A DNA stretch of 30,907 nt from Escherichia coli (GTDB taxonomy: Bacteria; Pseudomonadota; Gammaproteobacteria; Enterobacterales; Enterobacteriaceae), in NCBI RefSeq assembly GCF_003334385.1, contig NZ_QOWN01000055.1; one strand, given 5' to 3'. This document shows positions 9,250 to 9,290 of the stretch, piece by piece. The first letter of the stretch is position 1, and the number at the start of each line of letters is the position of its first letter. Below the pieces are notes generated by a model. It ran no database searches, was not told the DNA's origin, and saw nothing but the letters and a program-made list of their open reading frames with translations. The position numbers and the translations under genes were made by a program.

Positions 9250-9280
9250 CAGGTGACTGTATTAGTTGTTCAGTCACCTG
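9250..9280 (+). terminator. Hairpin (10-bp perfect stem, 11-nt loop) immediately after nanM; possible intra-operon terminator or attenuator
   Basis: CAGGTGACTG-tattagttgtt-CAGTCACCTG followed by AGTTATTTTA; begins 9 nt after the nanM stop and ends 10 nt before the next start. Confidence 0.45.
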
Positions 9281-9290
9281 AGTTATTTTA

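Follow-up and report, generated by a model that had tools for sequence, protein, structure and literature searches.

What does a strong RNA hairpin do inside a bacterial gene cluster when the gene behind it stands without a promoter of its own? The question arises in the sialic-acid gene cluster of a 30,907-nucleotide (nt) stretch of Escherichia coli DNA (contig NZ_QOWN01000055.1, assembly GCF_003334385.1; hereafter the window), where a perfect 10-bp inverted repeat lies between nanM and the gene of a second alpha/beta-hydrolase esterase, here called est2. The hairpin resembles a common type of end-of-transcript signal, probably a leaky one that goes back to the end of an ancestral operon, and not a new kind of element. 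We hold with moderate confidence that it acts as a weak, leaky terminator that also caps the upstream message against 3' exonucleases, with read-through setting a lower level of est2.

A perfect hairpin past the nanM stop codon

An initial annotation had proposed a perfect 10-bp hairpin between nanM and the second esterase gene, and all ten positions of the stem indeed form Watson-Crick pairs (9250-9259 with 9271-9280), six of them G-C; the same pair is listed by the repeat finder (I9). The stem lies on the transcribed + strand and begins 8 nt past the nanM stop codon TAA (9239-9241). From its end to the est2 start codon assigned by the Prokaryotic Genome Annotation Pipeline (PGAP), ATG 9291, the distance is 10 nt, as the initial annotation had placed it. 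The parts of the structure and the two flanking genes are:

8132..9241, + strand: nanM (N-acetylneuraminate epimerase), the gene upstream of the hairpin
9236..9243, + strand: AAATAACT, A-rich upstream half of the outer helix, containing the nanM stop TAA
9250..9259, + strand: CAGGTGACTG, 5' arm of the hairpin, found by sequence reading, repeat finder and RNA fold
9260..9270, + strand: TATTAGTTGTT, hairpin loop of 11 nt, from the RNA fold
9271..9280, + strand: CAGTCACCTG, 3' arm of the hairpin, exact reverse complement of CAGGTGACTG
9281..9289, + strand: AGTTATTTT, U-rich tail and partner strand of the outer helix; its TTATTTTAA is common to the tail of the Proteus terminator described below
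9291..10226, + strand: est2, second alpha/beta-hydrolase esterase, with the PGAP start at 9291

RNA folding extends this stem by an outer A/U-rich helix in one of two ways, pairing either AAAUAACU at 9236-9243 with AGUUAUUU at 9281-9288, or GUAAU at 9244-9248 with GUUAU at 9282-9286. Without two weak inner pairs the loop measures 11 nt; with them it shrinks to 5 nt.

The folding energy calculation that had been suggested as a check yields -16.0 kcal/mol for the inner stem alone (z = -5.0), a value reached by none of 200 shuffles. The 53-nt version with the outer helix (9236-9288) folds at -20.0 kcal/mol (z = -5.6) and a 76-nt context at -20.5 kcal/mol (z = -3.3). In dinucleotide shuffles of the 30.9-kb window, perfect hairpins with stems of 10 bp or more and loops of 3-15 nt turn up 0.44 times per shuffle; the window itself has seven. 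Such hairpins are therefore non-random here, and one in a given 49-nt spacer is very unlikely to arise by chance (roughly 7e-4); the hairpin behind nanM is far above chance strength. A 45-nt sliding fold over 3100-10300 (background mean -6.3 kcal/mol, standard deviation 3.3) places it second, at -20.0 kcal/mol, behind a fold inside the nanT coding sequence that reaches -23.3 kcal/mol in 45 nt (5277-5321). The earlier description of the hairpin as the only strong structure of the operon thus applies to the intergenic spacers and fails for the operon as a whole. Among the spacers, only the end of nanK has another structure, a small one: an A/U-rich inverted repeat of 8 perfect base pairs, GTATTACT-TAA-AGTAATAC (4998-5016), with the nanK stop codon as its 3-nt loop.

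The nanM/est2 boundary and the route to est2

According to NCBIfam models and to the RefSeq annotation of an identical genome, the + strand carries, in this order, nanA, nanK, nanT, est1 (alpha/beta-hydrolase), a KdgM-type porin gene, nanM and est2. Beyond est2 follow nanR (- strand), a gene of a SASA-type sialate O-acetylesterase, a major facilitator superfamily (MFS) gene (- strand) and iucABCD-iutA; copies of IS66 lie upstream of the cluster. The window corresponds to nan-9, a published accessory sialic-acid island of E. coli next to the aerobactin genes; this cluster is linked to the human host and frequent in sequence types ST131, ST73 and ST69 (Tiwari et al. 2023, PMC10088187). By length, the 49-nt spacer holding the hairpin does not stand out among its neighbors, since by PGAP starts nanK-nanT measures 48 nt and est1-porin 45 nt.

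The est2 protein has three close relatives only. Proteus faecis and P. mirabilis carry nanT-est1-porin-nanM-est2-nanR(-)-SASA in the order of the window; their cluster is without nanK between nanA and nanT, a gene found in the window at 4133-5008. Here a canonical terminator, AGCCTATATT-ATAAA-AATATAGGCT followed by TTTTATTTT, stands 10 nt past the nanM stop. Upon alignment of the window with Proteus, the two hairpins, both with 10-bp stems, fall in the same columns after nanM, their flanks can be aligned and both carry the same tail, TTATTTTAA. Their stem sequences are unrelated, the Proteus stem being A/T-rich, with a 5-nt loop and a U tract that abuts the stem. Between the Proteus terminator and the est2 start come about 85 nt that are AT-rich and promoter-like and include a GGTATC box. 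This stretch is missing in E. coli, and the nanM-est2 spacer measures 49 nt in the window versus 132 nt in Proteus.

E. coli IncF plasmids harbor a circular permutation of the cluster (est2, nanR(-), SASA, nanA, nanK, nanT, est1, porin, nanM), and the break relative to the window (3182-12082) falls exactly in the nanM|est2 spacer. In these plasmids est2 stands by itself ahead of nanR, and its promoter region contains a GGTAT-box palindrome; the plasmid copy CP088636.1 was excluded as a frameshift-ridden assembly. The three lineages are about equally distant from each other, with amino-acid identities of 58% for nanM, 55-58% for est2 and 90% for nanT. Because Proteus has both a terminator and an est2 promoter region at this place, because est2 stands alone in the IncF clusters and because divergence is comparable throughout, we take the nanM/est2 boundary to be an old transcription-unit boundary. 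A genome scan for further junctions returned Proteus, plus E. coli contigs that were mis-binned in metagenome-assembled genomes (MAGs), and nothing further, a DNA-pattern scan of metagenomes returned IncF-type clusters only, and more distant est2 homologues reside in unrelated gene contexts. Two MAGs, labelled Bacillota and Collinsella, contain contigs that match the E. coli nan-9 esterase at 99-100% identity, most likely through binning contamination.

The promoter scan identified no promoter-like site for est2 on the + strand between 8662 and 9682. A perfect TATAAT at 9299-9304 is without a -35 element and lies downstream of ATG 9291, and an est2 promoter within or past the hairpin was rejected by the scan and by sequence reading alike. 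Likewise, the box found in front of nanA has no match within 3 mismatches around 9250:

3136..3150, + strand: GGTGTACTAGGTATC, in the nanA promoter region, read as a NanR-type operator; sole full copy in the window

The nanA promoter regions of four cluster versions, the E. coli chromosomal one, that of Proteus and two from IncF plasmids, have this box without a difference, and it is probably the NanR operator of this cluster family. In the window it tags the presumed promoter from which transcription must extend to est2. A CRP-like site, TTGATAATCTTCACA, is located upstream of the box at about 3083-3097. The est2 gene is intact in 690 genomes, with conserved GFSAGG and HGF catalytic motifs. 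Because the gene is intact but has neither its own promoter nor a NanR box, we infer that it must be transcribed from upstream, through the hairpin; the sequence shows no other route.

A proposed leaky terminator at the end of nanM

Measured by classical criteria, the strong stem and the mediocre tail together suggest the profile of a weak terminator. Intrinsic terminators have stable, G+C-containing stems of about 5-14 bp, positioned past a stop codon on the transcribed strand. The present stem has 10 pairs, six of them G-C, and on the + strand it starts 8 nt past the nanM TAA. Downstream of it come AG and then UUAUUUU, giving 5-6 U in the first eight positions, enough for the T criterion of the terminator scan; the scan nevertheless passed over the hairpin because it limits loops to 8 nt and this loop has 11. 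The A-rich stretch upstream of the stem pairs with the U-rich tail in the RNA fold, as in many terminators. Termination on the opposite strand is less likely: the fold is equally stable there, but the U-rich segment is 6 nt farther from the stem and no minus-strand gene ends at this place.

We propose that the hairpin would form in mRNA started at the nanA promoter and would mark the ancestral 3' end of a nanA-nanK-nanT-est1-porin-nanM unit. As a weak, leaky Rho-independent terminator it would stop a fraction of the polymerases, and the transcripts ending there would have the 3' ends of their nanA-nanM message capped against exonucleases. Messenger RNA of est2 would then derive only from polymerases that read through, which would keep the cytoplasmic second esterase below the products of the six upstream genes. 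From this arrangement we infer 3' ends at the hairpin, partial read-through and the resulting esterase dose. Parallels are the perfect hairpins past two other genes of the window and the stem-loops in all nanM 3' flanks examined, both described below. The proposal resembles leaky intra-operon intrinsic terminators, which likewise combine a G+C-containing stem past a stop codon on the coding strand with a U-rich 3' tail and an A-rich 5' flank, and leave the downstream gene dependent on read-through. The nan-9 hairpin differs from them in its 11-nt loop and in having AG instead of U beside the stem. Within nan-9, the second esterase would be a gene that has lost its own NanR-controlled promoter and is expressed only via a terminator-like hairpin. 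This is of practical use for dissecting the island, as it bears on the polarity of deletions, on the design of reporter fusions and on the esterase levels to be expected; beyond that use, the hairpin would be routine operon punctuation.

Several points weigh against termination at this site. At 11 nt the loop exceeds the classical 3-8 nt, and the U run does not abut the stem but follows an AG. Scored after d'Aubenton-Carafa/TransTermHP, the T-tail reaches 1.19 when counted from the inner stem and 2.76 at most when the outer helix is included; the Proteus terminator scores 3.9. The constants of this scheme are unconfirmed in the literature, and it is used here for tail scores only, without the discriminant. 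Mapping of nan-9 transcript 3' ends was not found in the literature searched, and the Proteus junction is the single independent orthologous one found, too few for covariation statistics. Finally, conservation of the hairpin within E. coli is uninformative. Of 5,426 complete E. coli genomes, 690 carry the nanM-est2 junction, each of them once, and the other 4,736 lack it; over 9243-9289, 688 of the 690 copies show no difference. Of the two variants, the one inspected (strain 21515) carries T9248C, which falls in a bulge and leaves the stem intact. Because the copies are near-invariant together with the whole island, their agreement says nothing about the hairpin itself.

Competing readings and other gene-end hairpins

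The initial annotation had left the choice between a terminator or attenuator and a processing or stability element. The position of the hairpin, its UUAUUUU tail, the Proteus terminator and the dependence of est2 on read-through agree with this group of ideas; termination and stabilization are not separated by the sequence. A pure stability or processing element is a minority possibility and the main rival. It would not stop polymerase at all and would block 3'-to-5' exonucleases, so that the nanA-nanM segment outlives the est2 segment, with the ends themselves stemming from endonucleolytic cleavage in the AU-rich tail or from Rho-dependent termination farther downstream. Intercistronic hairpins that stabilize mRNA are known, for example the repetitive extragenic palindromic (REP) hairpins of malE-malF. 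Like these, the nan-9 hairpin is a stable structure in a polycistronic spacer that could favor abundance of the upstream segment; unlike these, it is single-copy and non-REP. The weak U tract and the long loop agree with such a role, as do three further hairpins that are all without a U tract. One of them is found in E. coli K-12, in the 64 nt between nanM and nanS of the nanCMS operon (NC_000913.3, about 4537595-4537658), where a perfect 9-bp hairpin, CAGGGCCCC-GGTAAA-GGGGCCCTG, starts 5 nt past the nanM stop. In E. albertii the K-12-type pairing is maintained through changes on both arms (GGCTCC and GGAGCC). The other two, both with long loops, belong to the island itself: a perfect 16-bp inverted repeat at 21545-21586, 27 nt past the iutA stop, and a perfect 15-bp inverted repeat at 27116-27160, 30 nt past the stop of an Iha-like TonB receptor gene. 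Going by these repeats, gene-end hairpins of this style are common in the island. Nothing, however, sets the hairpin behind nanM apart from a leaky terminator, and its tail TTATTTTAA is common to the canonical Proteus terminator. A third, partial copy of the iutA-end repeat, TTGTTTACAGC, was noticed at 21592-21602.

It is rather unlikely, in our estimation, that the hairpin is a mere relic, an ancestral nanM terminator that outlasted deletion of the esterase promoter region and is now read through efficiently, with little effect. The spacer of 49 nt versus 132 nt in Proteus, with sequence shared on both sides of the missing stretch, is what such a deletion would leave behind, and by terminator criteria the hairpin is weak. 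Without selection, on the other hand, a perfect 10-bp stem would be expected to decay. That the stem is intact in the one variant inspected speaks against decay, weakly so, since the island is young and clonal.

In a more far-reaching interpretation, which we regard as improbable, the hairpin between nanM and a sialate esterase gene would be a selected, recurrent design, reached independently in nan-9, Proteus and K-12 nanCMS, and would act as a condition-sensitive attenuator tuning the esterase dose. If so, modulation might come, for example, from how closely the ribosome terminating on nanM trails RNA polymerase, and the dose of esterase could be adjusted apart from the uptake and mutarotase genes. 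The nan-9 and K-12 hairpins share a perfect stem shortly past the nanM stop and ahead of a sialate esterase gene, as well as the stem base CAGG...CCTG. They differ in that the K-12 stem is all G-C, 9 bp long, with a 6-nt loop and no U tract, and NanS belongs to an unrelated esterase type (SGNH/SASA). The literature searched yielded no description of the K-12 nanM-nanS hairpin, and the single 3'-end data set consulted, obtained under conditions that repress nanCMS, has no 3' end in this spacer (PMC7815308). Klebsiella oxytoca, Rouxiella, Providencia rettgeri and Salmonella diarizonae also have a stem-loop no more than about 70 nt past the nanM stop. All nanM 3' flanks examined have a stem-loop, with the IncF clusters carrying a strong hairpin about 125 nt past the stop. 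Considering these flanks, we take the nan-9 hairpin to be one example of an arrangement common at the ends of genes and operons.

Control of est2 translation, with the hairpin sequestering the ribosome-binding site, appears highly improbable and hinges on which start codon is used. If translation starts at ATG 9291, which is 2 nt past the outer helix and without a good Shine-Dalgarno sequence, the Shine-Dalgarno region at about 9278-9285 would fall inside the stem and outer helix. The in-frame ATG 9303 is better served, with GGGG (9293-9296) 6 nt upstream and clear of the stem, in a start region like that of IncF: by eye, GGGGTTTATAATG at the est2 start resembles GGGGGTTATATG ahead of the IncF homologue, and the N-termini align accordingly. 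The true start may be 9303, in which case the distance from the hairpin would be 22 nt instead of 10 nt. In addition, 9281-9330 is unstructured (-4 kcal/mol, z = -0.2).

Least probable of all is a function at the DNA level, as a palindrome bound by NanR or another regulator or as a copy of a mobile or dispersed palindrome (REP-like, attC, or the end of a miniature inverted-repeat transposable element): the repeat is perfect and contains GGTGAC/GTCACC, and IncF est2 promoters do carry a palindromic GGTAT-box operator, but the operator of all four lineages is GGTGTACTAGGTATC, which the hairpin does not match within 3 mismatches, the Proteus sequence differs at the same place, and each of the 690 E. 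coli genomes with the hairpin has it at one site only. Individual candidates of this kind were rejected on the same grounds or by sequence reading. A NanR operator of GGTATA-type repeats (here GGTGTACTAGGTATC) is absent near 9250, the spacing TGTGA-N6-TCACA of a CRP site and CTG-N10-CAG of a LexA site is not present, and the flanks are unlike the attC core GTTRRRY. A dispersed palindromic repeat (REP-like or resembling a bacterial interspersed mosaic element) or a mobile element is ruled out by the single place per genome. The covariance models of Rfam 15 gave no family match, with two chance-level hits only (E = 2.6 and 3.2). Elsewhere in the window, a perfect 12-bp G+C-rich inverted repeat, CACTGGGGCTGC/GCAGCCCCAGTG, is situated at 12867-12895 inside the coding sequence of the MFS (shiF-like) gene on the minus strand.
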